Source: a virus (taxonomy: Duplodnaviria; Heunggongvirae; Uroviricota; Caudoviricetes). Taken from it: a stretch of 64,000 bases of DNA. The position numbers and the translations under genes were made by a program. Every line of letters starts with the position of its first letter. The first letter of the stretch is position 1. Shown here in pieces: positions 1-63,729 of this stretch. Location of the stretch: positions 29,514-93,513 of the IMG/VR virus record IMGVR_UViG_3300042879_005260; one strand, given 5' to 3'. Below the pieces are notes generated by a model that did no database searches, was not told the DNA's origin, and saw only the letters and a list, made by a program, of their open reading frames with translations.

Positions 1-31
1 AAAGTCAGAAGATTATTATGAGATTGGTAAA

Positions 32-592
32 ATGTGTATGGATGAAAAAATGCCTAAAAATTCAGAATCTCAAATGTTATCCGCAGTTGTTAAATGGATG
101 AAGAAAAATCTGCCTGAAAAAAAGTTTTTATATACTTGGGCAGATGGTATTGTTGGAAAAGTGGGATATGTTTACCAAGGGTCTAATTTTAATTATGGTG
201 GTTTTATTTGGACTGATATTTACATTTCAGCAACTGGTGAAAAAATACATCCTAGAAGTTCAAAAGCTCTTTTAATTGAAAACGCAGAATTTGTGGGTAA
301 AGATAAATTATTTTGGATGACACCAGATTTTATGGCATTTAAAGGCATTCGAAGAGTTAGAGGCAAACAATTTAGATATATTTACCCTTTAAATAAAGAA
401 GCGAAAAAAATATTAGAAAAAAATTCCACAGTTGATTGGCAACAAAAATACCCAAAAGAAGGTGATTTATTGTGGAAAGAACAAACAGGAAAAGGTGTTT
501 ATGTCAATCTAATTGGAAAACCTGAAATGGATTTAAGTGTTGTTGAATATAACCAGAAAAATGTTAATTCACATAAAAAATTAACGGTATAA
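32..592 (+). CDS. hypothetical protein (may start upstream of window)
   Basis: ORF track 186 aa; no recognisable motif. Confidence 0.4.
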   Translation: MCMDEKMPKNSESQMLSAVVKWMKKNLPEKKFLYTWADGIVGKVGYVYQGSNFNYGGFIWTDIYISATGEKIHPRSSKALLIENAEFVGKDKLFWMTPDFMAFKGIRRVRGKQFRYIYPLNKEAKKILEKNSTVDWQQKYPKEGDLLWKEQTGKGVYVNLIGKPEMDLSVVEYNQKNVNSHKKLTV

Positions 593-1156
593 AGTTACGG
601 TACCTCTTTTATATCCGTTAAAACCTTTAATTGTTTTATATTCAACATAATAAACATAGACACCAGATGGGCAATCATCACCGTTAAGTTTTCCATCCCA
701 AAAGTCATTAAAATTTTCAGTTGCAAAAACCAAACCACCCCATTTATTGTAAACAAAAATTTTTATTTCTGCCATGTAAGAAGATATTGGTTGCCAAATA
801 TCATTGAGATTATTACTATTTGGTGTAAAAGCGTTTGGTATTGTGATAATCGGGATTCTACAATTTATTACTTTAACATCGTAAATTTCAGGTTCAGACC
901 TACAATATAATGTGTTTTCAGAAAAAAGAATTATTTTATAATCACCAACATCCTTAAAGGTATATGTCATTTCTTTACCCGTAAAAGAAAAGATTGGCCA
1001 ATTGTTTAATTTAATTTCCCAATAATATTCACAATCAGGCGAACCAATCGAATTGTATGTAAAAGTATTGTTACTATCTTCACATAATTCTATTGTTTGG
1101 TTTTGTGAATAAAGATTGAAATTTATAAATAAGAAAAGTAATAAAATTAATCGCAT
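581..1156 (-). CDS. secreted protein with T9SS type B C-terminal sorting domain
   Basis: N-terminal signal peptide MRLILLLFLFINFNLYSQ; C-terminal IPNAFTPNSNNLNDIW...GVYVYYVEYK resembles gliding-motility/T9SS type B CTD. Confidence 0.55.
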   Translation of the reverse strand: MRLILLLFLFINFNLYSQNQTIELCEDSNNTFTYNSIGSPDCEYYWEIKLNNWPIFSFTGKEMTYTFKDVGDYKIILFSENTLYCRSEPEIYDVKVINCRIPIITIPNAFTPNSNNLNDIWQPISSYMAEIKIFVYNKWGGLVFATENFNDFWDGKLNGDDCPSGVYVYYVEYKTIKGFNGYKRGTVTLYR

Positions 1157-1157
1157 A

Positions 1158-1718
1158 TTAATTATGGCCTATTGGTGACAATATCGGTAATTGCATAACA
1201 TTTACGTTTATTATTGTTGTAAAGGTACAACCAGCGTTATTATAAGTATAAGTTATATTAAAAGAACCAGCACCACTATTAACAGGACAAAATGTTGTAC
1301 CAAAAACACCAGTTCCCGACCAAGTACCACCTGCTGGATTCGCTATTAAATTTTGGCAAGGAGCGTCTTCACACATGTCATTTAAAGTAACTACTATTGG
1401 GTTTACGTCATAAATAAAAACATCCAAAGTAACTAAAGGGCTTAAACAACCGACAGAATTACTAGCTTGAACTTGGACAGCGTTTGGTATTAAACCAGGG
1501 TTAGCGGTCGACCAATCTACTGTTATTTGATTTGTACCAGGACCTGATGTAATAACGCCAGGACTAACAACAGTCCAATTGTAAGTAAGTCCTGGTGTGT
1601 TTGGTACCTCATAAATTGAAACACCGGTTGACGAGTAACAAACTGTATCTGGGTTTACCGTTGTTAATTGGGCCATAACAGTTTTTGAGAATAATAGTAG
1701 TAATAATAGTTTTTTCAT
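1158..1718 (-). CDS. secreted Ig/PKD-like repeat protein
   Basis: signal peptide MKKLLLLLLFSKTVMA; Thr/Gly/Asn-rich repeats (ITVDWSTANPG); 1-bp gap to downstream T9SS-CTD gene. Confidence 0.45.
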   Translation of the reverse strand: MKKLLLLLLFSKTVMAQLTTVNPDTVCYSSTGVSIYEVPNTPGLTYNWTVVSPGVITSGPGTNQITVDWSTANPGLIPNAVQVQASNSVGCLSPLVTLDVFIYDVNPIVVTLNDMCEDAPCQNLIANPAGGTWSGTGVFGTTFCPVNSGAGSFNITYTYNNAGCTFTTIINVNVMQLPILSPIGHN

Positions 1719-1835
1719 ATTTTAAAATTGTTTATTCCAATATTTAGGCGGTATTAATTTAAGCTGCTTACTCACTTCCGATAAAAGTTTTAAAAGCTTT
1801 CTTTTTATTTTTTTGATTTTTCTTTTTTTAGCCAT

Positions 1836-2366
1836 TTATTTCCATCCTTTCCATTTAAAATATTGATAAGTCATTTGATAAAGTTCCACTGCTTTTGGGT
1901 ATGTTATCTCAAAAGTTTGTATTTCATTGTCTTTTACAATATCAATAAGATTTACGTTATTTAATAAAATAAATTTAAGTTTTTTTCGTGAGGCCTCATA
2001 ATAGGAATAAACAACCACATCATCGTTTTCTAAAAAATTAAAAGTTTTTTCTTCTTTAACTAATTTTAATTGGAATTTACTTTTGTCTGTGGTGAATAGA
2101 ATAAGACGTTTGTTTTGTAACAAATAGTCACCCTCAAAAGTGTTTTTAATTAATTTTGGTTCTAATAAACTTGATTTATTTTTATAGTATTGCTTTACGA
2201 TCAAAAAATCAGAGCTATCTTCATAACATAATGAAAACTCAACTTCTTCAGCATTATCACTAATTAATTTTGTAGAAGTAATTTCATGTACACTGTCACA
2301 TTGCGCATAAATCATATTTAAACACAGAAAAAACATTGTAGTAATTAAAGTTCTAAGTGCTGTCAT
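1836..2366 (-). CDS. secreted hypothetical protein
   Basis: N-terminal hydrophobic signal-like segment; 176 aa. Confidence 0.4.
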   Translation of the reverse strand: MTALRTLITTMFFLCLNMIYAQCDSVHEITSTKLISDNAEEVEFSLCYEDSSDFLIVKQYYKNKSSLLEPKLIKNTFEGDYLLQNKRLILFTTDKSKFQLKLVKEEKTFNFLENDDVVVYSYYEASRKKLKFILLNNVNLIDIVKDNEIQTFEITYPKAVELYQMTYQYFKWKGWK

Positions 2367-2377
2367 TTTTATTTTTT

Positions 2378-3622
2378 TTAATTTATCATAAGAATACGTT
2401 TTGTTATGTTATTACCTATTGTAACTATATAATTACCAGAAACAATGTCACCGACTTCAAAAGTTTGTGTACCAACAAATAAAATATTGTTAAATTTTTT
2501 AACACATTGGCCAGTTATATTGTAAATTTTAATATCACCACTTTTTTCTGTGACATTTTTAAAATTTAAAAAAATAAAATTTCTATCAGTAAAAACATCT
2601 ACAGTTTTATTTGTTTCTGAAAAAAAACCAGATGGATCCGAAATTTCAACAAGTACCGAATCTTCGGAAACACAAATACCATTGCTTGATTTTAATTTAA
2701 CAACATAAGTACCAACTTGGTTATAAACATGTGAAACCGTTGTTGAAATGGTGGAGTCAACCGCTGAACCATCACCAAAATCCCATATCTGACTTACTCC
2801 ATTAATAATTGTTGCATAAAAAATAATCGGGGTATTTATTATTCCAATAATTGGATTTATGTAATTAAATTGTATTTTAACAAAGTTAGTATTTGGGATT
2901 GTAACCCAATCCTCTATTATAAAACCATCTATTTGTAACAACATTTTATAGTTTCCAGATGTCAATAAAAAAAATATCGTATCAGATTCACCACTAAAAT
3001 CGGTAACAGTACCCAAAGTATCGTTTTCTGAGTTAATCAAAGTGATATCAACATCTAAAAAATTACTTAAATATTGAGTGACAATTAAACCACTACCATG
3101 TAAAACAGATTGTACCTGGCAAGGTTCTACGATTCCCGCCACAGTAAGAGGTGGGTGTATATGTATAAAAAACCTATTGTTAAATGTACCTGGAGTTAGT
3201 GAAACAGTAACACTGTTGTTTATTCTTAGGTTTTGTTTTAAACCTGTAATAGAATCTTCAATATAAATCATACTACTGGGTGGAAAACTACTAAAGTCAG
3301 AAACTGTTATTGTGTAATTTGCCAATGTTTGTATATAAAGGCCTAATGGTATTTTAAAATCTTTATTTAATTGACCCATAACGTTGATGGCCAATTTTTC
3401 ATTATCTATTATAGTGTAAATACTTGGGACACCTGGTAATGCCGCTAACATCTTTACACCGTCACTGCTTAGATTGAAACTATCACTTCCTAATGGGTCA
3501 AAATATATTACAGTTTCATCAGCACTATTATTACCTTGTAGTTCAATACACAATAGATTAGGTATTTCATTGGCGAATAAATTGGTTGTTATTAAGCAAA
3601 AAAATAGTAAAAACTTTTTCAT
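2378..3622 (-). CDS. secreted protein with T9SS type A (Por) C-terminal sorting domain
   Basis: signal peptide MKKFLLFFCLITTNLFA; C-terminus IKIYNITGQCV...GNYIVTIGN resembles Por secretion tail. Confidence 0.5.
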   Translation of the reverse strand: MKKFLLFFCLITTNLFANEIPNLLCIELQGNNSADETVIYFDPLGSDSFNLSSDGVKMLAALPGVPSIYTIIDNEKLAINVMGQLNKDFKIPLGLYIQTLANYTITVSDFSSFPPSSMIYIEDSITGLKQNLRINNSVTVSLTPGTFNNRFFIHIHPPLTVAGIVEPCQVQSVLHGSGLIVTQYLSNFLDVDITLINSENDTLGTVTDFSGESDTIFFLLTSGNYKMLLQIDGFIIEDWVTIPNTNFVKIQFNYINPIIGIINTPIIFYATIINGVSQIWDFGDGSAVDSTISTTVSHVYNQVGTYVVKLKSSNGICVSEDSVLVEISDPSGFFSETNKTVDVFTDRNFIFLNFKNVTEKSGDIKIYNITGQCVKKFNNILFVGTQTFEVGDIVSGNYIVTIGNNITKRILMIN

Positions 3623-3625
3623 AAA

Positions 3626-4222
3626 TTAATTGTGACTTATATTTGTTATATTAGGTAATGTAGTGTTTATTACACCATTGTAAATTGGAAAAGGCACTGT
3701 AGGACAAGAGTTATTAATCCAATTCCCCCAAGTACCGTCAGCACCTGCAGTCACTTGAATTAACAAACTTTGTGGTGTACAACTATTTGCAACAGTAACT
3801 TGAAAGCAAAAACTCCAAACACAAGTTGTTCCCTCATCTCCCCAATCATCGGAAGGGATGCCATTAAGTGGGCCATTAATACCAGAATCAAAAAACCAAC
3901 CTGGCCCAACCGCACCATTTGGTGTTAGATTATTAAATACCCATACCCATTGCCCACTACCTCCCCCACAATTTGCTGGTGCTGCCATTTGCTGTAGGTT
4001 CGTCCAACCTGAGCCTAAGTTAATATCGAAACCTTCTAACCAATTTGAACCAACATTTAAACCTGGCCAACCATTCATGGTGTAACACACTGTTACTACA
4101 GTACCTGGGGTATACCCACCAGCTGGAGGAGGTGGATTTAATGTAAATGTTTGGTTACCTACACATTGACCGTAAATAAAATTACTAATTAAGATGAGTA
4201 TAACTACTAAAAATCTTTTCAT
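3626..4222 (-). CDS. secreted Gly/Trp/Asn-rich protein
   Basis: signal peptide; ends ...NISHN like the 1158..1718 product (...PIGHN); paired with downstream T9SS-CTD gene. Confidence 0.4.
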   Translation of the reverse strand: MKRFLVVILILISNFIYGQCVGNQTFTLNPPPPAGGYTPGTVVTVCYTMNGWPGLNVGSNWLEGFDINLGSGWTNLQQMAAPANCGGGSGQWVWVFNNLTPNGAVGPGWFFDSGINGPLNGIPSDDWGDEGTTCVWSFCFQVTVANSCTPQSLLIQVTAGADGTWGNWINNSCPTVPFPIYNGVINTTLPNITNISHN

Positions 4223-4917
4223 ATTTTGGATAATAAATCGTAACCATCAATAACTTCAATATCGTGATCATGTACAAAAGATAAACGCCTTTCTTTATCT
4301 CTATCGTCATCTAAGTTTTTAAAAGTTGATATTAATAATAATTTCTTATTTCTTTGGTTGGCATCCATCTTTTCATAAGTATATTTTGTAGTATCCCAAT
4401 TTAAAGATTCTATGGTAAAAATTTTTGAATCAACTTCTTTATTTGTTAATAAATTTTGGCCAAGTTCATACCAAGAAAATCCTAATTTAAATAATTTTTT
4501 TTGAAGTTTATAGGTTTCCTTAATATCAATACCGTTATAAAATAAAATAATAAAATTACCTTTTAGTACCGGTAAACCTTTACTATCTAAAGAACTTTTT
4601 TGAATATGTAGTTCATTTTTCCAAGAAAAACCTTCTTTAAAAACTTTAACAAGGCCTTTGGAAGCTAAATCTTCAAGATGTGACTTACCAAAAGTACTTG
4701 TTGAGTAACCGTCTTCATCTTTAAAAATGTAAGCTTCATAAGTTTCATTATTATTATTTTGATAAAAATCTAATCTGTGTTCAGGGTCAAACTTCTGAAA
4801 TATTAAAATATCCCAATTATTACCGCTTTTGATTGCATATTTTCTACCCGGAACAAAATCTATTTTTTTAATTTCTTCGGGGTTTAGTACCCAATCGTAA
4901 TCATCAATTATTGACAT
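4219..4917 (-). CDS. hypothetical protein
   Basis: ORF track 232 aa. Confidence 0.4.
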   Translation of the reverse strand: MSIIDDYDWVLNPEEIKKIDFVPGRKYAIKSGNNWDILIFQKFDPEHRLDFYQNNNNETYEAYIFKDEDGYSTSTFGKSHLEDLASKGLVKVFKEGFSWKNELHIQKSSLDSKGLPVLKGNFIILFYNGIDIKETYKLQKKLFKLGFSWYELGQNLLTNKEVDSKIFTIESLNWDTTKYTYEKMDANQRNKKLLLISTFKNLDDDRDKERRLSFVHDHDIEVIDGYDLLSKI

Positions 4918-4975
4918 GTAAAATTATTTACTCTTAATTTTTAAATTCTTATTATTTGCATAAATATACAAAAAA

Positions 4976-5776
4976 ATGAATAAAATTCAAAAAATAATTC
5001 ACGTCGCTGACCTTCACATTCGTCTTTTCAAAAGGCATGACGAATATAAGGAACAATTTCAAAAATTTTTCGATGAATGTCGAAAACAAAAACCTGAACG
5101 TATTGTTGTTGTTGGTGACATTGTACATTCTAAAAATACCGTAACACCAGAATTAATAAGTATGGTAACTAATTTTTTTAATGAATGCACTAAAATAGCA
5201 AAAACAGTTGTTATTTTAGGTAATCATGATTTTTTAGTTAACAATTTAGACAGGATGGACACACTTTCACCTATATTTGAAAGTATGCAAAATCCAGATG
5301 TTATTTTTTATAAACACACTGGTTGTTATGTAGATGAGAATGTTGTTTGGTGTGTTTATGGGCATATGGAAGGATCCCAAAGACCTGAAATTGAAAAAGC
5401 AAGAGCAGAATATGGTGACGATAAAACTTATATTGGACTATATCATGATCCTTTGGTTGGTTTAAAAACGGCCATAGGTTTTGAATTTGAAGATGGCAAA
5501 GATGTTACTATATTTGAAGGTTGTGATGTGGTAATGTGTGGAGATATTCATTTATATGACGTTATGTATAATAGAGAAACACCGATTGTAATGCCTGGAA
5601 GTATGATAATGCAAGACTTCGGAGAAAAAGTTAAAGGACATGGTTACATACTTTGGGATGTTGAAACTAGATCTCATAAACAAATAGATATCCCTTCAGA
5701 TTATGGATTTTATACTTTTAAGATAAAATCTTTTGAGGATATTGAAAATGAATCTGAAAAATTGGTAAATGTCTAA
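4976..5776 (+). CDS. sbcD: Mre11/SbcD-family metallophosphoesterase nuclease subunit
   Basis: calcineurin-like motifs IHVADLHI, VVVGDIVH, GNHDF, GDIHLYD; lies upstream of Rad50/SbcC-like ATPase. Confidence 0.65.
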   Translation: MNKIQKIIHVADLHIRLFKRHDEYKEQFQKFFDECRKQKPERIVVVGDIVHSKNTVTPELISMVTNFFNECTKIAKTVVILGNHDFLVNNLDRMDTLSPIFESMQNPDVIFYKHTGCYVDENVVWCVYGHMEGSQRPEIEKARAEYGDDKTYIGLYHDPLVGLKTAIGFEFEDGKDVTIFEGCDVVMCGDIHLYDVMYNRETPIVMPGSMIMQDFGEKVKGHGYILWDVETRSHKQIDIPSDYGFYTFKIKSFEDIENESEKLVNV

Positions 5777-6362
5777 AGGTGATTTTAAAATAGAAAAAAT
5801 TACTAAAAAAGAGGCTGCAACAATTTTACTACATTATCATTATTTAAAAGATAAATCTAAAAGTTTTAAAAGTGGTTATAATTATGGCCTTTTTAAAGGT
5901 ACAGAATTATTAGGTGTTATTATTTTTACAGGTTTACCAGTCCCAGAATTGAGCAAAGGTATGTTGGGGTTGGAAAGAAATCAACAAGAAGGTTTATTTG
6001 AATTAAGTCGGTTATGCATACATCCCAAAATTCAAGGTCAAGAACATAATATAACCAGTTGGTTTGTTAGTAGAAGTATAAGAAAACTACGAAAAGAAAC
6101 AAATGTACGTTTAATATTAAGTTATGCTGATGCAGAATATCATGAAGGTGTTATTTATAAAGCATGTAATTTTACATATTATGGATTAACGGATTTTAAA
6201 AAAGATTTTTGGATACAACAAGAAGATGGTTCTTACATAAAACATTCCAGAGGCTCAATTAAAAATTTAAAAGGTGAATGGCGACCTAGAAGTCAAAAAC
6301 ATCGTTATATCCTTTTATTTGATAAAAGTTTAAATATTAAATGGAAATCCCATACGAAATAA
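5769..6362 (+). CDS. hypothetical protein
   Basis: ORF track 197 aa. Confidence 0.4.
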   Translation: MSKGDFKIEKITKKEAATILLHYHYLKDKSKSFKSGYNYGLFKGTELLGVIIFTGLPVPELSKGMLGLERNQQEGLFELSRLCIHPKIQGQEHNITSWFVSRSIRKLRKETNVRLILSYADAEYHEGVIYKACNFTYYGLTDFKKDFWIQQEDGSYIKHSRGSIKNLKGEWRPRSQKHRYILLFDKSLNIKWKSHTK

Positions 6363-6865: not shown

Positions 6866-6871
6866 AATTAT

Positions 6872-7264: not shown

Positions 7265-7277
7265 ATTTTATAAATAT

Positions 7278-7378
7278 CAGGTCAACACCTTTCGTTTATG
7301 GGTCATCTCTAGCGCCGTGAAATTAAATGATGATCTAGGTCTGCTGTCAATACCTTTCGTTTATGGGTCATCTCTAGC
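7278..7378 (-). CRISPR. mini-array A: 2 repeats (36 bp), 1 spacer (29 bp)
   Basis: repeats 7278-7313 (degenerate distal) and 7343-7378 (gene-proximal, gctagagatgacccataaacgaaaggtattgacagc in gene sense); spacer 7314-7342. Confidence 0.6.
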
Positions 7379-7707: not shown

Positions 7708-7732
7708 TATATTTAGTCAATATCATATAAAT

Positions 7733-11335: not shown

Positions 11336-12160
11336 ATGAGTATCACAAACACTAAAAGGTTTATCGACAATTCCGAAGAGAGTATTTCAAAATATCTTAA
11401 AGATGTTAGAAAACTTTCCATGCTTAAACCAGAAGAAGAGGTGGAATTAGCGAAAAAAGCACAAGAAGGTGATTCTAAAGCTTTAGAGATATTGGTAAAT
11501 TCTAACCTAAGATTCGTTATTTCAATCGCAAAACAATACCAAAACCAAGGGTTACCATTGTCTGATTTGATCGCTGAAGGTAATTTGGGATTAATTAAAG
11601 CCGCACAACGGTTTGATCACAATAAAGGTTTTAGATTTATTTCATACGCAGTTTGGTGGATTAAACAATCAATTATCCAATCCTTGAATGATAATGCTAG
11701 AACTGTTCGCCTACCTGTTAACATCACCAATAATATTTCAAAAGTAAAAAAAGAAGTTGCCGCTTTTGAACAGGAAAATGGCAGAAAACCCGATACTAAT
11801 GAAATGGATTTGTCAATACTTAATCAACCTTATTGTATGTCTTTGAATGAAACCATTAACGAAGATGGTGATGAGATGTTGGATGTAATTGAAGACAACA
11901 CTTTTGTAAGCCCAGACCAATCCTTCCAAAGTAATTCCGATTTGTTGAAAAATGAGTTGGAGAACATACTTTCCACCCTTTCAACACGTGAGCGTAATAT
12001 TATTGAACTATATTTTGGTTTAAATGGAAGTGCTTTAACTTTGGAAGAAATCGGTGATGAATATGGTTTGACAAAGGAACGTATTCGCCAAGTAAAAGCA
12101 AAAGCTTTAAGAAAATTAAGATATAAATCTTTAAATTTGTTTAAATATTTAAACGACTAA
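11336..12160 (+). CDS. sigma-70 family RNA polymerase sigma factor
   Basis: region 2 DLIAEGNLGLIKAAQRFD...FISYAVWWIKQ; region 4 LTLEEIGDEYGLTKERIRQVKAKALRKLR. Confidence 0.8.
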   Translation: MSITNTKRFIDNSEESISKYLKDVRKLSMLKPEEEVELAKKAQEGDSKALEILVNSNLRFVISIAKQYQNQGLPLSDLIAEGNLGLIKAAQRFDHNKGFRFISYAVWWIKQSIIQSLNDNARTVRLPVNITNNISKVKKEVAAFEQENGRKPDTNEMDLSILNQPYCMSLNETINEDGDEMLDVIEDNTFVSPDQSFQSNSDLLKNELENILSTLSTRERNIIELYFGLNGSALTLEEIGDEYGLTKERIRQVKAKALRKLRYKSLNLFKYLND

Positions 12161-25753: not shown

Positions 25754-26719
25754 ATGGCTGAAACTTTATACGATGTTTTAGGTCTTAACAAGACAGCAAC
25801 AAAAGAAGAAATAAAAAAAGCTTATCGTAATTTAAGTAAACAACACCATCCAGATGTTGGCGGTGATGAGGAGGTTTTTAAAAAAATATCCCATGCCTAT
25901 AACATTTTGTCTGATGATGACAAAAGAAAAAATTATGATAACCATGGTAGTGAAAAAAACCAAAGATTTAACCCATTTGCCGGTAATCCCTTTACCAATA
26001 TTAGAATGCGACCAAGACCTATAAACATTGAATTACGTTTAACGGTGGAGGAAGTTTATAACGGTTCTTTAAAAAAAATCCATTTTAAAGTTGAAAAACC
26101 CTGTAGCACATGTAACGGTGTCGGTGCAACGGAAACTAAACGCTGTGATGTTTGTGAAGGTAAGGGTGCGATTATTCATCAAATACAAAATATGCAACAC
26201 ATTACAATGTGTACTACATGTAACGGTAGTGGTATAATACCTATTAAAAAATGTAATACATGCAACGGTATCGGCAGACAATTAGTGTCAGAAAATCATG
26301 ATATCGACATACCTAAAGGGGTTACAGAAGGTAACACTTTAATCTTAGAAGGTTTTGGTAATCAAAATACAGCTGGTTATCGTGGTGATGTTTTTTTATT
26401 AATAAAAGTAGAACCACATCCTGTTTACACAATAGAAGGCCTTGATATTAGCAAAAAAGAAGAATTACCTTTTATTGATATGGTTTTAGGTTGTAATTAT
26501 GAATTAGAAACTTTAGGTGGTAAATTTAAAATTACAATACCAGAAAGTTGCGAATCAAACAAAATTTTTCGGTTAAAAGGCCAAGGTATTAAGGATGAAA
26601 ATTCTGGACGTGTTGGTGATTTATATGTGAAAGTAATACCTAAAATACCAAAAGAATTAACAACAGAAGAAAAAAATACTCTTTTAAGTCTTAAAAACTT
26701 TAGTAATAAATTTTCCTGA
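25754..26719 (+). CDS. dnaJ: DnaJ-like chaperone
   Basis: J domain with HPD (YRNLSKQHHPDVGGD); four CxxCxGxG zinc-finger repeats. Confidence 0.8.
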   Translation: MAETLYDVLGLNKTATKEEIKKAYRNLSKQHHPDVGGDEEVFKKISHAYNILSDDDKRKNYDNHGSEKNQRFNPFAGNPFTNIRMRPRPINIELRLTVEEVYNGSLKKIHFKVEKPCSTCNGVGATETKRCDVCEGKGAIIHQIQNMQHITMCTTCNGSGIIPIKKCNTCNGIGRQLVSENHDIDIPKGVTEGNTLILEGFGNQNTAGYRGDVFLLIKVEPHPVYTIEGLDISKKEELPFIDMVLGCNYELETLGGKFKITIPESCESNKIFRLKGQGIKDENSGRVGDLYVKVIPKIPKELTTEEKNTLLSLKNFSNKFS

Positions 26720-29181: not shown

Positions 29182-29208
29182 TTTTATGACTCTTTGAAAT
29201 ATTTTAAT

Positions 29209-29279
29209 GTCCGATGGTGTAACGGCTAACATTTCTGAATTTGACTCAGAAGATTTCAGGTTCGAATCCTGATCGGACA
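29209..29279 (+). tRNA. tRNA-Gln(UUG)
   Basis: acceptor GTCCGAT/ATCGGAC, anticodon arm TCTGA-ATTTGAC-TCAGA, T-arm TCAGGTTCGAATCCTGA. Confidence 0.7.
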
Positions 29280-29288
29280 ACCATAACC

Positions 29289-29361
29289 GGAGCTTTCGTA
29301 TAGCTGGTGCGTACGTTGGACTGAAAATCCAAAGGACTAGGCTCGATTCCTAGAGGCTCCA
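29289..29361 (+). tRNA. tRNA-Phe(GAA)
   Basis: anticodon arm TTGGA-CTGAAAA-TCCAA; T-loop CTCGATT. Confidence 0.7.
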
Positions 29362-29367
29362 CTGAAC

Positions 29368-29441
29368 GGCGTCGTAGTCAAGTGGTTTAAGACAGGACTC
29401 TCATAAGGTCCCATTCGGGGGTTCGAATCCCTTCGACGCTA
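29368..29441 (+). tRNA. tRNA-Met/Ile2(CAU)
   Basis: anticodon arm GGACT-CTCATAA-GGTCC; T-arm GGGGGTTCGAATCCCTT. Confidence 0.65.
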
Positions 29442-29446
29442 CAAAT

Positions 29447-29519
29447 TCTCCTGAAGCATTGCTGGCGATGCACCTGACTTGTAATCAGGATACAATCGGT
29501 TCGATTCCGGTCGGGAGAT
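29447..29519 (+). tRNA. tRNA-Thr(UGU)
   Basis: anticodon arm CCTGA-CTTGTAA-TCAGG; T-loop TTCGATT. Confidence 0.65.
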
Positions 29520-29525
29520 CCAAAT

Positions 29526-29597
29526 AGTTCTGTAACTCAATGGAAGAGTACCAAGCTTACATCTTGGCTGTCGTTAGTTCGATTCTAACCAGAACTA
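29526..29597 (+). tRNA. tRNA-Val(UAC)
   Basis: acceptor AGTTCTG/CAGAACT; anticodon arm CCAAG-CTTACAT-CTTGG. Confidence 0.65.
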
Positions 29598-29604
29598 CTT
29601 AAAT

Positions 29605-29679
29605 GCCTCCATGGCGGAATTGGTAGACGCGTCACTCTTAGAAAGTGAATTTTTGTAGGTTCGAATCCTACTGGGGGCA
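29605..29679 (+). tRNA. tRNA-Leu(UAG), short variable arm
   Basis: Leu-type D-arm GCGGAATTGGTAGACGC; anticodon arm TCACT-CTTAGAA-AGTGA; discriminator A; only 75 nt. Confidence 0.55.
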
Positions 29680-29690
29680 CAAAAAAATAT

Positions 29691-29721
29691 TTGGTAAATT
29701 AAAAAATTTTATCTATATTTG
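29691..29721 (+). promoter_or_regulatory. Bacteroidetes-type promoter inside the tRNA cluster
   Basis: TTG at 29691, 20-nt gap, TATATTTG at 29714-29721, directly upstream of tRNA-Glu. Confidence 0.45.
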
Positions 29722-29733
29722 TACAACAATAAC

Positions 29734-29805
29734 GGTCGGTTCATCTAAGGGTTAGGATACAAGATTTTCATTCTTGTCATAGGGGTCCGAATCCCCTACC
29801 GACTA
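29734..29805 (+). tRNA. tRNA-Glu(UUC)
   Basis: anticodon arm CAAGA-TTTTCAT-TCTTG; T-arm AGGGGTCCGAATCCCCT. Confidence 0.65.
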
Positions 29806-29876
29806 CAAAAGGTTGATTGGGAATTCGGTGAACCGATGAGGTGAGTGAAACTAATCATAAAGTTCTTTGATATTAT

Positions 29877-29964
29877 GGCTGGGTGGCGAAATTTGGTTAT
29901 ACGCGAAAGACTTAAAATCTTTTGGACCGTGAGGTCCGTGCGGGTTCGAGTCCCGCCCCGGCTA
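29877..29964 (+). tRNA. tRNA-Leu(UAA), class II
   Basis: anticodon arm AAAGA-CTTAAAA-TCTTT; long variable arm TGGACCGTGAGGTCCGT; T-arm GCGGGTTCGAGTCCCGC. Confidence 0.7.
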
Positions 29965-29970
29965 CTAAAC

Positions 29971-30047
29971 ATGGTGATAGAGGAGTCAGGTTTATCTCGC
30001 TTGGTTTGGGACCAAGAATTACGTGGGTTCGAATCCCACTCACCATA
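29971..30047 (+). tRNA. tRNA-Pro(UGG)
   Basis: acceptor ATGGTGA/TCACCAT; anticodon arm CTTGG-TTTGGGA-CCAAG. Confidence 0.6.
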
Positions 30048-30055
30048 CTAAACAA

Positions 30056-30128
30056 GCCCTCGTGGCGCAACGGTGAGCGCAGGATGCTTATATCATCAAG
30101 GCTGTTGGTTCGAGTCCAACCGAGGGTA
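30056..30128 (+). tRNA. tRNA-Ile(UAU) candidate
   Basis: anticodon arm GGATG-CTTATAT-CATCA gives anticodon TAT; T-arm GTTGGTTCGAGTCCAAC. Confidence 0.5.
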
Positions 30129-30227
30129 CTAAAAAAAATATTAATCCTAGATTAAAATGAAAATAAAATATAAATATAAACAGTAAGGTTAGTCCACTAC
30201 GAATGGGCTAACCTTATAAAATGTTAA

Positions 30228-30299
30228 CCGCTCGTAGCAAACTGGTGTAGGCAATAGACTTTTAATCTATGGGGCTGGGTTCGACTCCCAGCGGGCGGA
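30228..30299 (+). tRNA. tRNA-Lys(UUU)
   Basis: anticodon arm ATAGA-CTTTTAA-TCTAT; T-arm CTGGGTTCGACTCCCAG. Confidence 0.65.
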
Positions 30300-30324
30300 C
30301 AAAAACCAAATTAAATAAGATTAC

Positions 30325-31603: not shown

Positions 31604-32434
31604 ATGAAAACAAAAATGAAAACAAAAATGAAATCAATCCTTTTTAGCTTAATCGTAGTAGTAACCCTTAGCTCATGTGAGCGTGTCGCACCCAATTATT
31701 ATGGAGTTCTCATGGAAAACTACGGTAAAAATGGCAAAGAAGACTACTCGAAACAACAAGGGAGAGTAAACACAACTGCTCCAGGTACAGAACTGTTTCA
31801 AGTACCAGCTTTTGAACAAAGAGCCGCATTTACTAATGAAGACGGTACCGATCGTGTATTGAAGCTCAAAGCAGCAGATAACACTGAGTTTAATGCCAAA
31901 CCACTTTATTCCTATAAGGCAATGCCTAATCGAGTAGTTGATTTGGTATTTCAAAATGCTCGACTTGGTAGTGGTGATAGCTTTATGAAATCCCTAGAAG
32001 ATAATGTGTTAGAACCTCATATTTACGATTTAATCAAAGAAGAAAGTAGAAAATACATTACTGACTCTCTTATGGCTAATGGTGGTTCATTAAAGTTTGA
32101 AGAGCGAGTACAAGCTCTAGTTAAGAAATCTTTCGAAGACAAAGGTTTAGAGTTAATTACCTTCAGTGCAAACCTTGACTTCAGTGATAAAGTAAAAGCT
32201 AAAATTGATTCTCGTAATGAAGTAAATACAAACATATCAGTGTTAGATCAACAAATTGCTGAGCAGAAAAAGAGAAACGAATTGGCTGAATTACAAGCAC
32301 AGGAAAACATAATCAAATCAAGAGGTATTACTCAAGAGTTGTTGCAACAACAAGCACTTGAAAAATGGAATGGTGTGTTACCAAGTACTTGGGCTGGGAA
32401 TGGTAGTTTACCTTTTGTAAAAGCAGTTAAGTAA
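31604..32434 (+). CDS. SPFH/band-7 domain lipoprotein
   Basis: lipoprotein signal ...TLSSC; prohibitin-like core with C-terminal coiled coil AEQKKRNELAELQAQE. Confidence 0.55.
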   Translation: MKTKMKTKMKSILFSLIVVVTLSSCERVAPNYYGVLMENYGKNGKEDYSKQQGRVNTTAPGTELFQVPAFEQRAAFTNEDGTDRVLKLKAADNTEFNAKPLYSYKAMPNRVVDLVFQNARLGSGDSFMKSLEDNVLEPHIYDLIKEESRKYITDSLMANGGSLKFEERVQALVKKSFEDKGLELITFSANLDFSDKVKAKIDSRNEVNTNISVLDQQIAEQKKRNELAELQAQENIIKSRGITQELLQQQALEKWNGVLPSTWAGNGSLPFVKAVK

Positions 32435-32443
32435 TAAAGGTTT

Positions 32444-32520
32444 AGTCAGGTGGCTGAATTGGCGACAGAGGCACTCCATTAGACAATGGGTGGATGCAGG
32501 TTCGAGTCCTGTCCTGACTA
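32444..32520 (+). tRNA. tRNA-like element with aberrant anticodon region
   Basis: acceptor AGTCAGG/CCTGACT and T-arm GCAGGTTCGAGTCCTGT are canonical, but the central region forms an extended CCATT-AGAC-AATGG hairpin instead of a 7-nt anticodon loop. Confidence 0.4.
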
Positions 32521-32540
32521 CTAAAAAATTAAAAAATAAA

Positions 32541-36039: not shown

Positions 36040-36110
36040 GCGGTATTTGTGTAGTGGTAAGACATGACATTGCCAATGTTAAGACGTAAGTTCGATTCTT
36101 GCATACCGCT
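36040..36110 (+). tRNA. tRNA-Gly(GCC)
   Basis: acceptor GCGGTAT/ATACCGC; anticodon arm TGACA-TTGCCAA-TGTTA; T-arm GTAAGTTCGATTCTTGC. Confidence 0.6.
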
Positions 36111-36156
36111 CTATTGATTTTTTTACATTGTAAACATATATTTATATTAAAAAAAT

Positions 36157-36708
36157 ATGAAAGATAAATTTGATGATTTTGGTGACGACTTTTTTGGTCG
36201 TTGGGAAGAGTTTAATAGATTAATGGTTAACTCACCTTTGATAAGAGATGAAATGGAAAAATTTCTTCGAATGCTAATGGATTCCAATGATTTAAATAAC
36301 GAAATTTCAAATATTAGAATCATACCTTTGAATGCTTATAAGCCAAATGATATTGATTCTTTTGATATTCCAGAAAACGAATTGGATGTTGAAAAAGGTG
36401 AAAATGAAAACGGTAAATGGGAAACTAAAAGTTGGACATCTCCAGATGGTTCTATGAGTTTTAAATCTTTTAGTATGTCATCAACACCCGAAGAATTTTT
36501 TTATAAAAATTTAATGTCAGATCTTTTTCAAACTGGTGACAATAGAAATTCAAAAAAATATACTACAGAAGATTTGAAAAATTTTAAAATAGAAAAACTC
36601 CAAAAATCTTTAAATGCCGCAGTTGAAGTTGAAGATTATGAAAAAGCTGCGGAACTTAAAAAAATGATTGAAAAAATAAAAGAAGAAAATTTTGATAATA
36701 AAAAATAA
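36157..36708 (+). CDS. acidic protein with UVR-like motif
   Basis: C-terminal LQKSLNAAVEVEDYEKAAELKKMIEKIK resembles UvrB/UvrC (UVR) domain. Confidence 0.4.
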   Translation: MKDKFDDFGDDFFGRWEEFNRLMVNSPLIRDEMEKFLRMLMDSNDLNNEISNIRIIPLNAYKPNDIDSFDIPENELDVEKGENENGKWETKSWTSPDGSMSFKSFSMSSTPEEFFYKNLMSDLFQTGDNRNSKKYTTEDLKNFKIEKLQKSLNAAVEVEDYEKAAELKKMIEKIKEENFDNKK

Positions 36709-36727
36709 TTTTATATATTTGTGATAT

Positions 36728-36890
36728 ATTTATAAAACAGAAAATGAAAAATTGGCAAAACATATCGATTAACCATAGTAACCGAATTAGTTCGGAATGT
36801 ATGAGGTGTGTCTTGTCCAGATTTAAGGTATAATTATTTTTATAAAAAATTGGATAACCCACCTCAAGAAATTTGATGGTGGGTTTTTTG
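36728..36890 (+). ncRNA. candidate small RNA (~160 nt) between promoter and terminator
   Basis: TTGATA..TATATTTG promoter at 36692-36721; terminator hairpin 36856-36885 plus T-run; only a 29-aa ORF inside. Confidence 0.3.
36855..36890 (+). terminator. rho-independent terminator
   Basis: aacccacc...ggtgggtt hairpin plus T6. Confidence 0.6.
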
Positions 36891-37006
36891 TTATTTGACA
36901 TATTGGAAATAAATTGGAGAGTTAAGCAGATGCATTGGAGCGTCGACCAGCTTTGAAACCTGGGTCTCGTTAAATTGAGTGGGGGTCGGGTCCTCAGCTC
37001 TCCGCT

Positions 37007-37081
37007 GTGTCTGTAGCTTAGATGGTTTAAAGCGTCTGATTGTGGTTCAGAAGACCGTGGGTTCGAATCCCACCAGACACC
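37007..37081 (+). tRNA. tRNA-His(GUG)
   Basis: acceptor GTGTCTG/CAGACAC; anticodon arm TCTGA-TTGTGGT-TCAGA; T-arm GTGGGTTCGAATCCCAC. Confidence 0.65.
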
Positions 37082-37087
37082 TTATAG

Positions 37088-37159
37088 GGGGGTGTAGCTC
37101 AGAGGCAGAGCAAACTACTGTTAATAGTTAGGCCGAGATTTCAAAATTCTCCATCCCCG
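37088..37159 (+). tRNA. tRNA-Asn(GUU)
   Basis: acceptor GGGGGTG/CATCCCC; anticodon arm AACTA-CTGTTAA-TAGTT; T-loop TTCAAAA. Confidence 0.55.
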
Positions 37160-37165
37160 CAAAAT

Positions 37166-37238
37166 AGTACCGTGTCTGAACGGTTTAGGAACTATCCTGA
37201 TAAGATAGGAAAAGTGGGTTCGACTCCCACCGGTACTA
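37166..37238 (+). tRNA. tRNA-Ile(GAU)
   Basis: acceptor AGTACCG/CGGTACT; anticodon arm CTATC-CTGATAA-GATAG; T-arm GTGGGTTCGACTCCCAC. Confidence 0.65.
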
Positions 37239-37244
37239 CAACAT

Positions 37245-37326
37245 GCATCTGCTCATTGGTGTGACCAACCGGCTCCAACCCGGTAATGCGTAAGCGTGGT
37301 TAAGAGTTCGAATCTCTTCGGATGCG
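37245..37326 (+). tRNA. tRNA with anticodon CCA (Trp?) and long extra arm, atypical
   Basis: acceptor GCATCTG/CGGATGC; anticodon arm ACCGG-CTCCAAC-CCGGT; T-arm AAGAGTTCGAATCTCTT; 82 nt. Confidence 0.4.
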
Positions 37327-37331
37327 CAAAA

Positions 37332-37418
37332 GGAAGATAGGTAAATATTGGTTTGTTACAACATCCTGCTAAGATGTCCCAGGTAAAACTGGTGAGGGTT
37401 CAATTCCCTTGTCTTCCG
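37332..37418 (+). tRNA. tRNA-Ser(GCU), class II
   Basis: anticodon arm ACATC-CTGCTAA-GATGT; long variable arm CCCAGGTAAAACTGGT; CCA encoded. Confidence 0.65.
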
Positions 37419-37424
37419 CCAAAT

Positions 37425-37499
37425 AGTCCCATAGCTCAACGGATTTAGAGTACAGTGCTACGAACACTGCGGTTGAAGGTTCAAATCCTTCTGGGACTA
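37425..37499 (+). tRNA. tRNA-Arg(ACG)
   Basis: acceptor AGTCCCA/TGGGACT; anticodon arm CAGTG-CTACGAA-CACTG; T-arm GAAGGTTCAAATCCTTC. Confidence 0.65.
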
Positions 37500-37540
37500 C
37501 AAACATTTACTAAAAAAAGAAAATTTCATATTATTCAAAT

Positions 37541-41378: not shown

Positions 41379-42092
41379 GTGATATTTATTTATAAATCAA
41401 ATTTAATTATGAAAAATATAATTACACTTAATGAAAATCAACTTGAAAAATTGGTTAAAAAAATTATCCAAGAAAATGATGAAAAAGAAAGCAATCGTTA
41501 TATGTTTTTTTCCAATCTAGAACAAATGCATAGGCAAACAGCAATGTTGTTGGAAATGGATGAAGAAACAATAACAAATATATTGGAAAACGGTCATGAT
41601 TGGGCACAAGACCATATCGCAGAAGCAAAAAATAATATGGACCAAGTTTTCGATTTTTTAATGAACGAAACTAAAGGTGGTGACCACGAGTATGATGACT
41701 ATGATGATGACTATGATGATGACTATGATGATAATGAGATGATGGTTATGGAACCGCAACTAGAATCTTATTTAAGAGAAAATTCTGATAGAATTATAGA
41801 TTTTGATGAATTTGGTTTTACTGAATTACTTCCTATAAATGAAGCTAAAGGTAAGGGTGCTTGTGCTAATAGAGGTTTAAGTAAACCATGGTTAACACCT
41901 GGTGGTCCTAAAAAACGTTCTGTTTGTGTTAAAAACGCAAGTGGTAATGTGGTTAAAGTAAACTTTGGTGACCCAAATATGAGAATAAAAAAGTCTAACC
42001 CAAAAAGACGTAAATCTTTTAGAGCTCGTCATAAATGTAGTAACCCAGGTCCTAAATGGAAGGCAAAATATTGGAGTTGCCGCGCGTGGTGA
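41379..42092 (+). CDS. protein with acidic DDYDDDYDDDYDD repeat and basic Cys-containing C-terminal tail
   Basis: codon-level tandem repeat at 41694-41740; tail ...HKCSNPGPKWKAKYWSCRAW. Confidence 0.4.
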   Translation: MIFIYKSNLIMKNIITLNENQLEKLVKKIIQENDEKESNRYMFFSNLEQMHRQTAMLLEMDEETITNILENGHDWAQDHIAEAKNNMDQVFDFLMNETKGGDHEYDDYDDDYDDDYDDNEMMVMEPQLESYLRENSDRIIDFDEFGFTELLPINEAKGKGACANRGLSKPWLTPGGPKKRSVCVKNASGNVVKVNFGDPNMRIKKSNPKRRKSFRARHKCSNPGPKWKAKYWSCRAW

Positions 42093-42978
42093 TCATCAAC
42101 TCAATACCTTTATAAGATTTTAACTTACCTTTAATAACTTTAGTTATATTTGACCTATCTAAATTATTTTCTTTACAAAATTTAGATAGGTCATTTTTTA
42201 ATATTTCCATAATTAAATTTTTGTTTCTATCGTAAAAATTTACCACTTCAAGATTTAAATTATCATATTCTTGACATTTTGTTAAAATTTTATTGTCAGT
42301 TTGTTGAGTATCTAAAAAACAATAGTAACCTTTATTTCTTTTAATATTTTTTATATGACCCCTTAATGTATTAGTAAAAAAATGTATTTTTAAATTATTT
42401 TTTTCACAAAAATCTTCTAAACTTTTAATTCTTAAAATATTGTTTTGGGCATCAACTAAAACCCAATTCTTTGCTTTATTTTTATTTTGTTCTACTAATC
42501 TAGATGTGTTTTTTTGGCTTATTTTATTTTTATGTTCCTGACTAAATTTTTTACCCTTATTAGACATAATGAATTTTTTAACTTTTTCTTGATATTCCAC
42601 ACTATTTAAAGTTTTTTGCCATTTTTCCGATTTTTTTAAACCGTCAGAAATTATTTTAGATAAACATTCAGACACCATTCGCATCCTGTTTTTTTGACCA
42701 CCACCTAAAATATTGTACCCATTGGGTGTTATAGAGCTTAATTGTTTTATCCAGTAAATTTCTTTTTCATCTAATTCTTCTAAAGTTGAAGCCTTATCTA
42801 TTATTTCCCATTCAAAATTTTCTATACCATATTTTTTTATGGCATTTAAAAACGGCCTATTACTTTTATCAAGTTTTGATTCTTTTAAATGACCTTTAAT
42901 TCTTTTATCTAAATTTCTAATTGTTTGACCAATATAGATTTTGTTATTTATTTTATTTTTAACTCTGTAAATTATCAT
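42052..42978 (-). CDS. GIY-YIG homing endonuclease
   Basis: MIIYRVKNKINNKIYIGQT...R..KGH GIY-YIG motif; 308 aa with extended C-terminal region. Confidence 0.7.
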   Translation of the reverse strand: MIIYRVKNKINNKIYIGQTIRNLDKRIKGHLKESKLDKSNRPFLNAIKKYGIENFEWEIIDKASTLEELDEKEIYWIKQLSSITPNGYNILGGGQKNRMRMVSECLSKIISDGLKKSEKWQKTLNSVEYQEKVKKFIMSNKGKKFSQEHKNKISQKNTSRLVEQNKNKAKNWVLVDAQNNILRIKSLEDFCEKNNLKIHFFTNTLRGHIKNIKRNKGYYCFLDTQQTDNKILTKCQEYDNLNLEVVNFYDRNKNLIMEILKNDLSKFCKENNLDRSNITKVIKGKLKSYKGIELMITTRGNSNILPSI

Positions 42979-43055: not shown

Positions 43056-43517
43056 ATGAAACATATAATTAAAGAAATATTATTACAAGAAGCAAAGAAA
43101 AAAGATGACCGTTGTACCAGGATTGCTAAACGTAAATACGATGTTTGGCCTTCTGCTTACGCATCAGGTGCAGTAGTTAAATGTCGCCAAGGTAAAATTT
43201 GGAAAAATGAAAATTTAGAATATGATGATTTTTTATTGTTTGAAAACGATGAATATGAAAATATTTTAATTGAGGAATCTAAAAAAGATTTTAGTAAAGA
43301 AAAAGAAGAAGGTTTACATGGTTGGTTTGCAAGACAAGGCGGTAGTGGTAAAGGAAAAGGCTGGGTAGATTGTAACACCTGTAGAACCGATAAAAAAACA
43401 GGTAGAAAAAAGTGTAAAACTTGTGGCCGTCAAGAAGGTGAAAAAAGAGCTAAATACCCAAGATGCAGACCAACACCATCACAATGTAAAGGATATAAAA
43501 GACCGGACGAAAGATAA
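43056..43517 (+). CDS. basic Cys-rich protein
   Basis: C-terminal CNTCRTDKKTGRKKCKTCGRQ...CRPTPSQCKGYKRP. Confidence 0.4.
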   Translation: MKHIIKEILLQEAKKKDDRCTRIAKRKYDVWPSAYASGAVVKCRQGKIWKNENLEYDDFLLFENDEYENILIEESKKDFSKEKEEGLHGWFARQGGSGKGKGWVDCNTCRTDKKTGRKKCKTCGRQEGEKRAKYPRCRPTPSQCKGYKRPDER

Positions 43518-43518
43518 A

Positions 43519-57674: not shown

Positions 57675-57722
57675 AAAAATTATTTTCTGATTACAAATAT
57701 AAAAAATTTTATTGATATTATC

Positions 57723-57749
57723 AATAAAAAAACCCCTGAATTCAGGGGT
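57723..57749 (-). terminator. rho-independent terminator for minus-strand ncRNA
   Basis: cccctgaattcagggg hairpin followed on the minus strand by T7. Confidence 0.55.
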
Positions 57750-57756
57750 TTTCAAA

Positions 57757-63384: not shown

Positions 63385-63398
63385 AATTTATATAATCG

Positions 63399-63470
63399 AG
63401 GCCAGAGCAGAAATCGAATCTGCCTAAGGGTTTTTGCAGAACCCCACCTAAACCACTCGGTCATCCGGCC
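63399..63470 (-). tRNA. tRNA-Cys(GCA)
   Basis: reverse complement: acceptor GGCCGGA/TCTGGCC, anticodon arm GGGTT-CTGCAAA-AACCC, T-arm GCAGATTCGATTTCTGC. Confidence 0.55.
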
Positions 63471-63477
63471 ATTATTG

Positions 63478-63550
63478 TGGACCACAACGGAATCGAACCG
63501 TTAATTTCACTTGAATGCAAATCAAGTGCCCTACCTTCGGGATGTAGCCC
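63478..63550 (-). tRNA. tRNA-Ala(UGC)
   Basis: reverse complement: acceptor GGGCTAC/GTGGTCC with G3:U70; anticodon arm CTTGA-TTTGCAT-TCAAG; T-loop TTCGATT. Confidence 0.55.
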
Positions 63551-63564
63551 ATTTAATATTTTTG

Positions 63565-63637
63565 CGGTCCACACGGGAGTTGAACCCGTTCCATACTCCG
63601 TGACAGGGAGATATCTTAACCGTTTGACCTGTGGACC
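63565..63637 (-). tRNA. tRNA-Asp(GUC)
   Basis: reverse complement: acceptor GGTCCAC/GTGGACC, anticodon loop CTGTCAC, T-arm ACGGGTTCAACTCCCGT. Confidence 0.55.
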
Positions 63638-63641
63638 AGGG

Positions 63642-63729
63642 TGGGTGTGGTAGGACTCGAACCTACGATGTTTAGTCTAAAGACCTTTGATTTACAGTCA
63701 AAGCCAATCGCCACTATGGTGACACACCC
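63642..63729 (-). tRNA. tRNA-Tyr(GUA), class II
   Basis: reverse complement: acceptor GGGTGTG/CACACCC, anticodon arm TTTGA-CTGTAAA-TCAAA, long variable arm, T-arm GTAGGTTCGAGTCCTAC. Confidence 0.6.

Follow-up and report, generated by a model that had tools for sequence, protein, structure and literature searches.

Known surface adhesins and phage-borne cargo

Adhesins of the class represented by SprB of Flavobacterium johnsoniae and by the GhpA 'grappling hook' of Aureispira (PDB 9flp) consist of one polypeptide, thousands of residues long, with many immunoglobulin (Ig)-like repeats. They share a common domain order: a signal peptide, a distal adhesin-like domain, Ig/PKD-like repeats with the motif GGxWSGxG and a CHU_C domain, i.e. 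a C-terminal domain (CTD) of type B belonging to the secretion system of type IX (T9SS). The same order is found in proteins of metagenome-assembled genomes (MAGs) and in the combined products of three phage genes, A, B and C, which belong to a minus-strand block in the 64,000-nucleotide stretch analysed here (positions 29,514 to 93,513 of IMG/VR record IMGVR_UViG_3300042879_005260; this whole stretch is called the window below). The trio is colinear with one host adhesin and, on homology and architecture alone, we regard it as very likely to be a three-piece mini adhesin. With less assurance, we consider it probable that what the phage carries in this block is a giant host adhesin of T9SS type B in miniature, displayed on the cell surface through the T9SS.

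T9SS cargo has been met in phages before. De Jonge et al. (2019, PMC6949934) reported T9SS sorting-domain proteins on crAss-like BACON contigs, and Bellas et al. (2020, PMC7468147) found type A CTDs on variable genes of 'Cryophage', then called a unique occurrence. Given these reports of phage type A cargo, a preliminary description of the window, made from the sequence alone, overstated the case when it called T9SS cargo in a phage unusual. The earlier cases and the present one have in common that Bacteroidota phage genes carry T9SS sorting domains, presumably make use of host secretion and occupy variable or moron-like positions; one further gene of our block, P4, fits the description of the type A cargo. 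The Cryophage and crAss-like cases, however, are type A CTDs on enzymes, PA14 or BACON proteins, whereas the trio, which is split, bears a type B CTD, imitates a host adhesin and is conserved instead of hypervariable. Phages with type A cargo are thus already known, but in the searchable literature we found no report of type B (CHU_C) phage cargo, of a mini-adhesin that a phage has derived from the SprB/GhpA class, or of the split architecture, which is here a conserved one.

Organization of the gene block

The block extends from 4917 to 581 on the minus strand of the window and is tightly packed. In gene order, its members are:

4219..4917, minus strand: P6, 232 amino acids (aa); its stop overlaps the start of A (ATGA); without signal peptide and without family match
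3626..4222, minus strand: A, 198 aa, secreted Cys-rich beta-sandwich 'tip'; signal peptide ending in ...IYG and followed by QC; conserved C-terminal tail ...ISHN
2378..3622, minus strand: P4, 414 aa, inserted gene; signal peptide, domain of ~230 aa, PKD domain, type A T9SS CTD
1836..2366, minus strand: P3, 176 aa, secreted ORFan, part of the insertion; signal peptide ending in ...IYA and followed by QC
1722..1835, minus strand: very basic open reading frame (ORF) of 37 codons (MAKKRKIKKIKRK..., MAKKRKIKKIKRKLLKLL...), read directly from the sequence
1158..1718, minus strand: B, 186 aa, secreted 'stem'; signal peptide ending in ...VMA and followed by QL; PKD_6 domain; second Ig-like domain with GGTWSGTG; tail ...SPIGHN
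581..1156, minus strand: C, 191 aa, secreted 'anchor'; signal peptide ending in ...LYS and followed by QN; Ig-like domain; type B T9SS CTD (CHU_C)

The preliminary description had singled out A, P4, B and C as two back-to-back pairs separated by 3 and 1 nucleotides (nt). The four ORFs are indeed on the minus strand at these positions and both spacings were borne out by the junction sequences, which read ...ISHN-TAA-ttt-ATG between A and P4 (3626/3622; in frame, 3-nt gap) and ...IGHN-TAA-t-ATG between B and C (1158/1156; 1-nt gap). What had been missed is the third secreted ORF, P3, together with the packed 37-codon ORF, and the fact that the two ORFs without CTD, A and B, end in the same conserved C-terminal motif. 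The 37-codon ORF lies 0 nt from P3 (TAAATG) and 3 nt from B, and is annotated as a gene in four related loci (L001, L003, L005 and L006).

Database families contributed little to the description of the block. A, P3 and P6 had no family match in Pfam/NCBIfam, six block proteins had none in PHROGs, and none of the seven block proteins matched the known anti-phage defence and exclusion models of PADLOC. P3 and the 37-codon ORF had no relatives beyond the close lineage; P6 is linked to the trio in close relatives only (P6-A-... in L040-L042 and L045).

Sorting domains and signal peptides

The preliminary assignment of the two CTD types was checked with hidden Markov models (HMMs) and stood. C scored 55.5 bits against TIGR04131 (type B, cut-off 35) and 60.6 bits against Pfam CHU_C PF13585 (cut-off 27), the TIGR04131/PF13585 test extending over profile positions 1-80 of 85. 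The scores of P4 were marginal, with 26.0 bits against TIGR04183 (type A, cut-off 23) and 27.0 bits against Pfam Por_Secre_tail (PF18962, cut-off 27); the type A call is backed by six full-length homologues with PF18962, and the tail of P4 (...IYNITGQCV...GNYIV...KRILMIN) has the usual type A layout. P4 also has a PKD domain (38 bits) and B a PKD_6 domain (PF19408, 37.8 bits).

By inspection, A, P4, P3, B and C all start with a signal-peptide-like sequence, and the predicted +1 residue is Gln in four of these five proteins. That of C is MRLILLLFLFINFNLYS followed by Q, with Gln likewise at +1 in 7/7 divergent orthologues; that of P4 is MKKFLLFFCLITTNLFA followed by NE. In Bacteroidota, Gln is preferred after signal peptidase I cleavage. 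C, with a CTD above the curated cut-off and an N-terminal Sec signal peptide, is a predicted type B cargo protein, and P4, with a CTD marginally above the cut-off and a signal peptide, a predicted type A one. As the preliminary description had deduced, the host phylum is Bacteroidota, in view of the T9SS domains, of signal peptides with Gln at +1 and of the nearest cellular homologues, which are in Flavobacteriales/Bacteroidia MAGs.

A conserved trio and an insertion between its first two genes

Relatives of A form a family of at least 162 clusters, of ~197 aa, and are encoded on 111 IMG/VR contigs. Eighty loci from these contigs were classified with HMMs built from the trio proteins. A, B and C were found in that order in 62 of the 80, and uninterrupted in 60; the remaining loci are mostly cut by contig ends, while six of the 80 have one fused ORF. 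In most loci the start of C is 0-3 nt from the stop of B. The same succession is seen on distant contigs of 128-317 kb, where A is followed by a PKD_6 gene (185-188 aa) and then by a CHU_C gene (186-195 aa), in neighbourhoods that are mutually unrelated. In one locus (L104, 445..1836) an extra B-like ORF of 463 aa, of the PKD_6 type, is present upstream of the trio.

P4 was found between A and B only in the lineage of the window, in L045 (A-P4-B-C) and in L046 (A-P4-B up to the record end), and P3 only in close relatives. At L011 (8595..8715) and L012 (6793..6913), from a relative 76% identical, P4 is absent and the 121-nt A-B spacer is a remnant of the 3' end of P3 (…FEVTYP…ELYKM…). A P4/P3-type insertion was therefore deleted there, which marks the site as indel-prone. 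Thus the insertion between A and B, made up of P4, P3 and the 37-codon ORF, is specific to the lineage, and the pairing of 3626..4222 with 2378..3622 is a secondary adjacency made by that insertion, which the preliminary description had not recognized.

Its picture of two equivalent cassettes, each made of a secreted protein and a CTD protein, has accordingly to give way to that of an insertion into a three-gene unit; no paralogy was found among the members of the two supposed cassettes. One may still conceive of two independent two-gene cassettes, A going with P4 by the type A route and B with C by the type B route, the CTD-bearing partner carrying or anchoring the protein that has no CTD. 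The tight spacings of 3 and 1 nt would fit such an arrangement, as would the TAA-NNN-ATG layout of the A-P4 junction, also present in L045 and L046; furthermore A and B both end in ...IxHN, and A could in principle dock on P4 in this lineage. We nevertheless judge it improbable, for in 60 of the 80 viral loci B and C come directly after A with no P4, the A-B-C order mirrors that of a single host protein, the members are not paralogous, and the P3 remnant of L011 and L012 marks the A-B interval as an indel site.

The tails shared by A (…[LV]G[PNA]IxHN) and B (…L[ST]PI[QS]H[ND]) are conserved in ~95% of loci. Their rare variants change jointly in the two proteins: both end in HY in L118, and both are without the terminal Asn in L058 and L059. 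This covariation hints at a partner or process common to the two tails.

Full-length relatives of P4 are few, some of them phage-borne and one on a 1.5-Mb cellular contig. Its N-terminal ~230 residues are, by contrast, a common domain (3817 matches), which in giant proteins usually comes close to the C-terminus, ahead of PKD and Por_Secre_tail (type A CTD) domains. Judged by this usual position, P4 resembles a truncated base module of a host surface protein, provided with its own signal peptide.

Colinearity with giant host adhesins and with fused phage proteins

A scan of 185,579 species genomes gave 26 cellular loci with an A-like domain, all in Bacteroidota MAGs (Flavobacteriales, Bacteroidia, Chitinophagales and Saprospirales), of 42-48% GC and some on contigs of 0.8-1.3 Mb. 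In all 26, one long protein (768 to >2366 aa) has the A-like domain at its N-terminus, and none is split. The proteins run on into Ig-like repeats, and a CHU_C-type tail (…GxVxLxR) closes every complete one. Identity with the N-termini of these MAG proteins is 31-48% for A, and identity with the C-termini of the cellular adhesins 35-39% for C. When the trio was compared by Blastp with an adhesin of 1347 aa, residues 1-173 of A aligned with its residues 17-189 (47% identity), B matched its central GGTWSGxG Ig-like repeats several times, and residues 107-191 of C aligned with its last 90 residues.

In six IMG/VR loci a fused phage ORF of 505-683 aa is colinear with A+B+C minus the two internal signal peptides. 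The fused form is itself a large family (163 matches of 510-610 aa, all with PF13585), found on contigs of T4-like phages, beside T4-type capsid genes. A conceptual splicing of A, mature B and mature C aligned colinearly with the fused proteins: the split form corresponds to the fused chain with a cut in each of two inter-domain linkers and a new signal peptide on each piece. For example, …TSPISH·VMDTVCV… of the fused form becomes, in the split form, …PIxHN-stop, a signal peptide, then Q-LTTxNPDTVCY…; Gln comes after the internal signal peptide in 14/14 examined.

A neighbour-joining (NJ) tree of the A domain, crude as it is (170 columns), groups a large split clade with nine cellular adhesins and places the window group with the fused viral forms, a topology that implies repeated fission or fusion, or domain exchange. 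The nine cellular proteins, all from Flavobacteriales, nest beside the largest split-phage clade, apart from the other cellular proteins (L013-L025 compared with the viral A domains). Such a position suggests that the tip domain may have been exchanged between phages and hosts. In L016 (190..11975), as in L013, L021 and L025, the A-domain adhesin is within a run of three consecutive large CHU_C proteins (~1900, 1350 and 660 aa); the 6-kb flanks of this three-CHU_C cluster in the Flavobacteriales MAGs hold no PorP/SprF gene.

The phage genes are fragments of a larger host architecture, and one could take them for functionless remains of a captured host adhesin gene, in the course of decay. We find this hardly credible: the ORFs are intact and of constant length in >100 protein clusters, down to ~50% identity, their cysteines are invariant, and each piece has gained a signal peptide of its own.

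It was also considered that the pieces are rejoined into one chain at translation, by stop read-through with an ochre suppressor tRNA or by frameshifting. ARAGORN reported a tRNA with anticodon TTA at 32444..32521 of the window (plus strand), TAA is nearly always the stop of both A and B, and P4 is in frame with A across their junction. The B-C junctions, however, are out of frame or overlapping (TAATG), the A-B spacers measure 7 to 14 nt, and a full signal peptide starts each downstream gene. TAA moreover behaves as an ordinary stop: it is the stop of 54 of 68 long ORFs, and in-frame extensions have a median of 6 codons. As to the tRNA, Rfam confirmed it as such (36.9 bits), but the stem has a mismatch, and the 8 nt of its anticodon loop (UUAGACAA) make the anticodon call doubtful; it may be Leu-UAG-like, a quadruplet reader or a suppressor. 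The 8-nt loop, the ordinary use of TAA and the out-of-frame B-C junctions led us to reject TAA read-through by this ARAGORN 'tRNA-Stop', and rejoining in either form is very improbable.

Structure and relation to the SprB/GhpA class

The AlphaFold2 model of A is confident (pLDDT 89.7, pTM 0.83) and shows a beta-sandwich with an unstructured tail of 14 residues. A Foldseek search of the PDB gave only weak matches for it (TM ≤0.46), and the only clear viral structural match was an 800-aa GEVED-domain protein of virus NIOZ-UU157. The modelled fold resembles AgI/II-type adhesin domains, as reported for the GhpA tip; in sequence, the A domain has no match to SprB or GhpA. The profile of the fused form, in contrast, matched GhpA with E = 6e-37, through the Ig repeats and the C-terminal sorting domain.

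The trio thus has the Ig/PKD-like repeats and the type B CTD of the SprB/GhpA class. It differs from the class in being phage-encoded and usually made of three polypeptides, each with a signal peptide, in having no adjacent PorP/SprF or PorE gene that we could find, and in size: three chains of 186-198 aa, or one of 505-683 aa when fused, i.e. ~525 aa in total against 800-6500 aa in the SprB/GhpA-class adhesins. It is derived from that class and at best works like it, without being a strict member.

Proposed export and function

Homology, colinearity, the conserved split and the location in a phage are established by the comparisons made here, whereas the steps of export and their purpose are inferred. 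In the mechanism that we propose, A would be the distal adhesin-like tip, B would contribute two Ig-like stem domains, and C an Ig-like domain with the type B sorting and anchoring domain. During infection, the pieces would be exported by Sec and cleaved before Gln. The host T9SS would then take over C, which a PorP/SprF-like shuttle of the host would retain on the outer membrane, while P4 would leave by the PorV route, the one that type A cargo use. A and B would either use the ...P-I-x-H-N tails conserved at their C-termini to dock on C, or have their action in the periplasm; as a guess, we prefer docking onto the next subunit.

The split itself could then be functional, A, B and C reassembling after Sec export into a non-covalent mini-filament through the PIxHN tails, so that the subunits without CTD ride on the CTD of C. 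We rate this bolder proposal as rather unlikely. In the lineage of the window, the tail of A might also dock on P4, which would provide two alternative anchors for one tip. Chaperone-usher pili and the type V pili of Bacteroidota are made of separately exported subunits joined by a terminal strand. By analogy, separately exported Ig-like subunits could join non-covalently, and the tails of the trio share homology with the linkers between domains in the fused form; unlike the pili, the trio shows no sign of an incomplete Ig fold, a chaperone, an usher or lipoprotein processing. With reassembly, if true, piggy-back export through the T9SS would have its first case, and so would a phage-built surface appendage displacing host receptor adhesins.

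A different fate for A and B, about equally unlikely in our estimation, is that they are not displayed with C but are periplasmic or released decoys which, for instance, bind an envelope or T9SS part and so block machinery that incoming phages exploit. Neither protein has any CTD, A is disulfide-rich, as expected of a periplasmic or extracellular protein, and mutations to flavophage resistance fall mainly in T9SS and gliding genes. Against this, the trio lines up with a surface filament, and fused forms exist whose A domain has to move together with the CTD; both argue for the cell surface as the ancestral place of action.

The purpose of surface display would most likely be to remodel the infected cell surface through the host T9SS. 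The T9SS-secreted adhesins SprB and RemA are considered flavophage receptors, and flavophage resistance mutations cluster in T9SS and gliding genes. Full-length host adhesins might be outcompeted or masked, so that other phages are excluded and progeny are not lost on infected cells; alternatively, the infected cell might gain a new adhesive property. The superinfection exclusion, receptor masking and adhesin roles put forward in the preliminary description are plausible in this respect, although any one specific purpose, taken singly, is doubtful. Phage proteins of the T5 Llp, phi80/N15 Cor and lambda Lom/Bor class have a signal peptide and are placed in the host envelope during infection, in receptor masking or superinfection exclusion. 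The likeness that we propose with them would be a functional analogy only, there being no sequence or fold kinship, and the route of the trio would be the T9SS.

Several points weigh against surface display as outlined above. Neither A nor B, devoid of CTD, has a known route across the outer membrane, and the tails by which they would dock were modelled as coil. No PorP_SprF Pfam match was obtained for the scanned window ORFs of 276-386 aa or in the precomputed Pfam annotation of the neighbours in related loci, hence the export of C would rest on a host shuttle. Type B cargo leave by Sec and next by the T9SS and are kept on the surface by the specific PorP/SprF-like shuttles that they bind, often adjacently encoded (PMC12618676, PMC9143113), and the specificity of these shuttles is narrow, but orphan type B cargo exist. 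In the NJ tree, the split forms were monophyletic in 0/50 bootstraps, which gives no support to a single fission event. The evidence fits exclusion and adhesion alike. Lastly, the genes of the family adjoin virion genes in some relatives, namely those for a T4-type prohead protease and the Gp23 capsid protein in L121 and two tail sheath genes in L010.

With such neighbours, and Ig-like domains being common on virions, the products could be thought of as virion parts: Hoc-like Ig decoration or fibre proteins that bind the same ligand as the host adhesin and whose secretion signals are vestigial. A Hoc-like decoration protein is a cytoplasmic Ig-like protein without export signal, whereas here, in divergent loci, each of the three pieces conserves a signal peptide with Gln at +1. 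Periplasmic export is incompatible with the assembly of virions in the cytoplasm, CHU_C is conserved well above the cut-off, and the other neighbourhoods are non-structural (helicase, RNA ligase, SbcCD and Mom genes). The conserved export signals make a virion role unlikely, and we hold it to be slightly less probable than the two-cassette arrangement.

If display through the T9SS is correct, the cargo of many large phages of freshwater Bacteroidota goes beyond stray T9SS-tagged enzymes and includes a host type B surface filament, retained as a minimised and conserved copy. This would point to a deliberate rewiring of the infected cell surface via the secretion and gliding apparatus that flavophages need for adsorption. 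The ~190-aa C protein and the ~525-aa fused form would be natural minimal type B cargo, useful for studies of shuttle recognition, and the split form raises the question of whether CTD-less proteins are exported by association with a CTD-bearing partner.

Phage context of the block

The carrier is a large phage of freshwater Bacteroidota. The window has a uniform GC content of ~28% and represents about half of a 122.6-kb genome, the exact A protein being on record on a contig of that size. Features recognized outside the block include:

32..592, plus strand: Mom-like DNA-modification gene, next to the block
5769..6362, plus strand: paralogous Mom-like gene, on the other flank of the block
11336..12160, plus strand: sigma-70-family factor with regions 1.2, 2 and 4
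29208..30300, 36040..37500 and 63398..63729: three clusters of tRNA genes
31604..32434, plus strand: SPFH/Band 7 protein
42052..42978, minus strand: GIY-YIG endonuclease
55833..57755, minus strand: PcfJ-like protein

The tRNA clusters together hold 21 genes in 64 kb (ARAGORN). SbcD- and SbcC-like genes adjoin the block, and amidase-like and NUDIX genes were also found in the window; no cellular housekeeping gene was seen there, and no virion gene was recognized in the window itself. The same block with the same neighbours is present in at least six metagenome contigs. The Mom-like and SbcCD flanks, the 21 tRNAs, this identical synteny and the virion genes of the relatives (Gp23, prohead protease, tail sheath) place the block within a phage genome and not at a prophage edge, which answers the boundary check called for in the preliminary description.

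Catalogued phages offered little for comparison. The DNA of window positions 1-8000 had no match in INPHARED. IMG/VR did not contain an exact 50-mer taken from gene A, so that the contig of the window itself was not recovered from it. The sole catalogued match for A was a weak one, in LR756502.1 (514984..515370), a 642-kb uncultured 'huge phage', with 32.6% identity over residues 46-173. A scan for sigma-70 promoters and terminators was uninformative (36 sites against 29 expected), the model being ill-suited to Bacteroidota promoters.

A few further observations were made around the block and elsewhere in the window. The ~28% GC of the phage differs from the 42-48% GC of the closest cellular homologues of its adhesin genes. 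Close relatives have up to three Mom-like genes in succession, for example at 13631..14997 of L001. A few kb from the block, L001 (16058..17218) and L002 (8309..9469) carry a gene of 386 aa with a precomputed Pfam match to DruA, a component of the Druantia defence system, which is unexpected for a phage. The phage encodes a full-length DnaJ chaperone, with J domain, CXXCXGXG zinc domain and C-terminal domain (25754..26719, plus strand of the window). Finally, the 788-aa protein encoded at 43423..45789 (plus strand) contains MIB_HERC2 (40.9 bits), a domain more familiar from eukaryotic E3 ligases, and weakly matches an OB fold.

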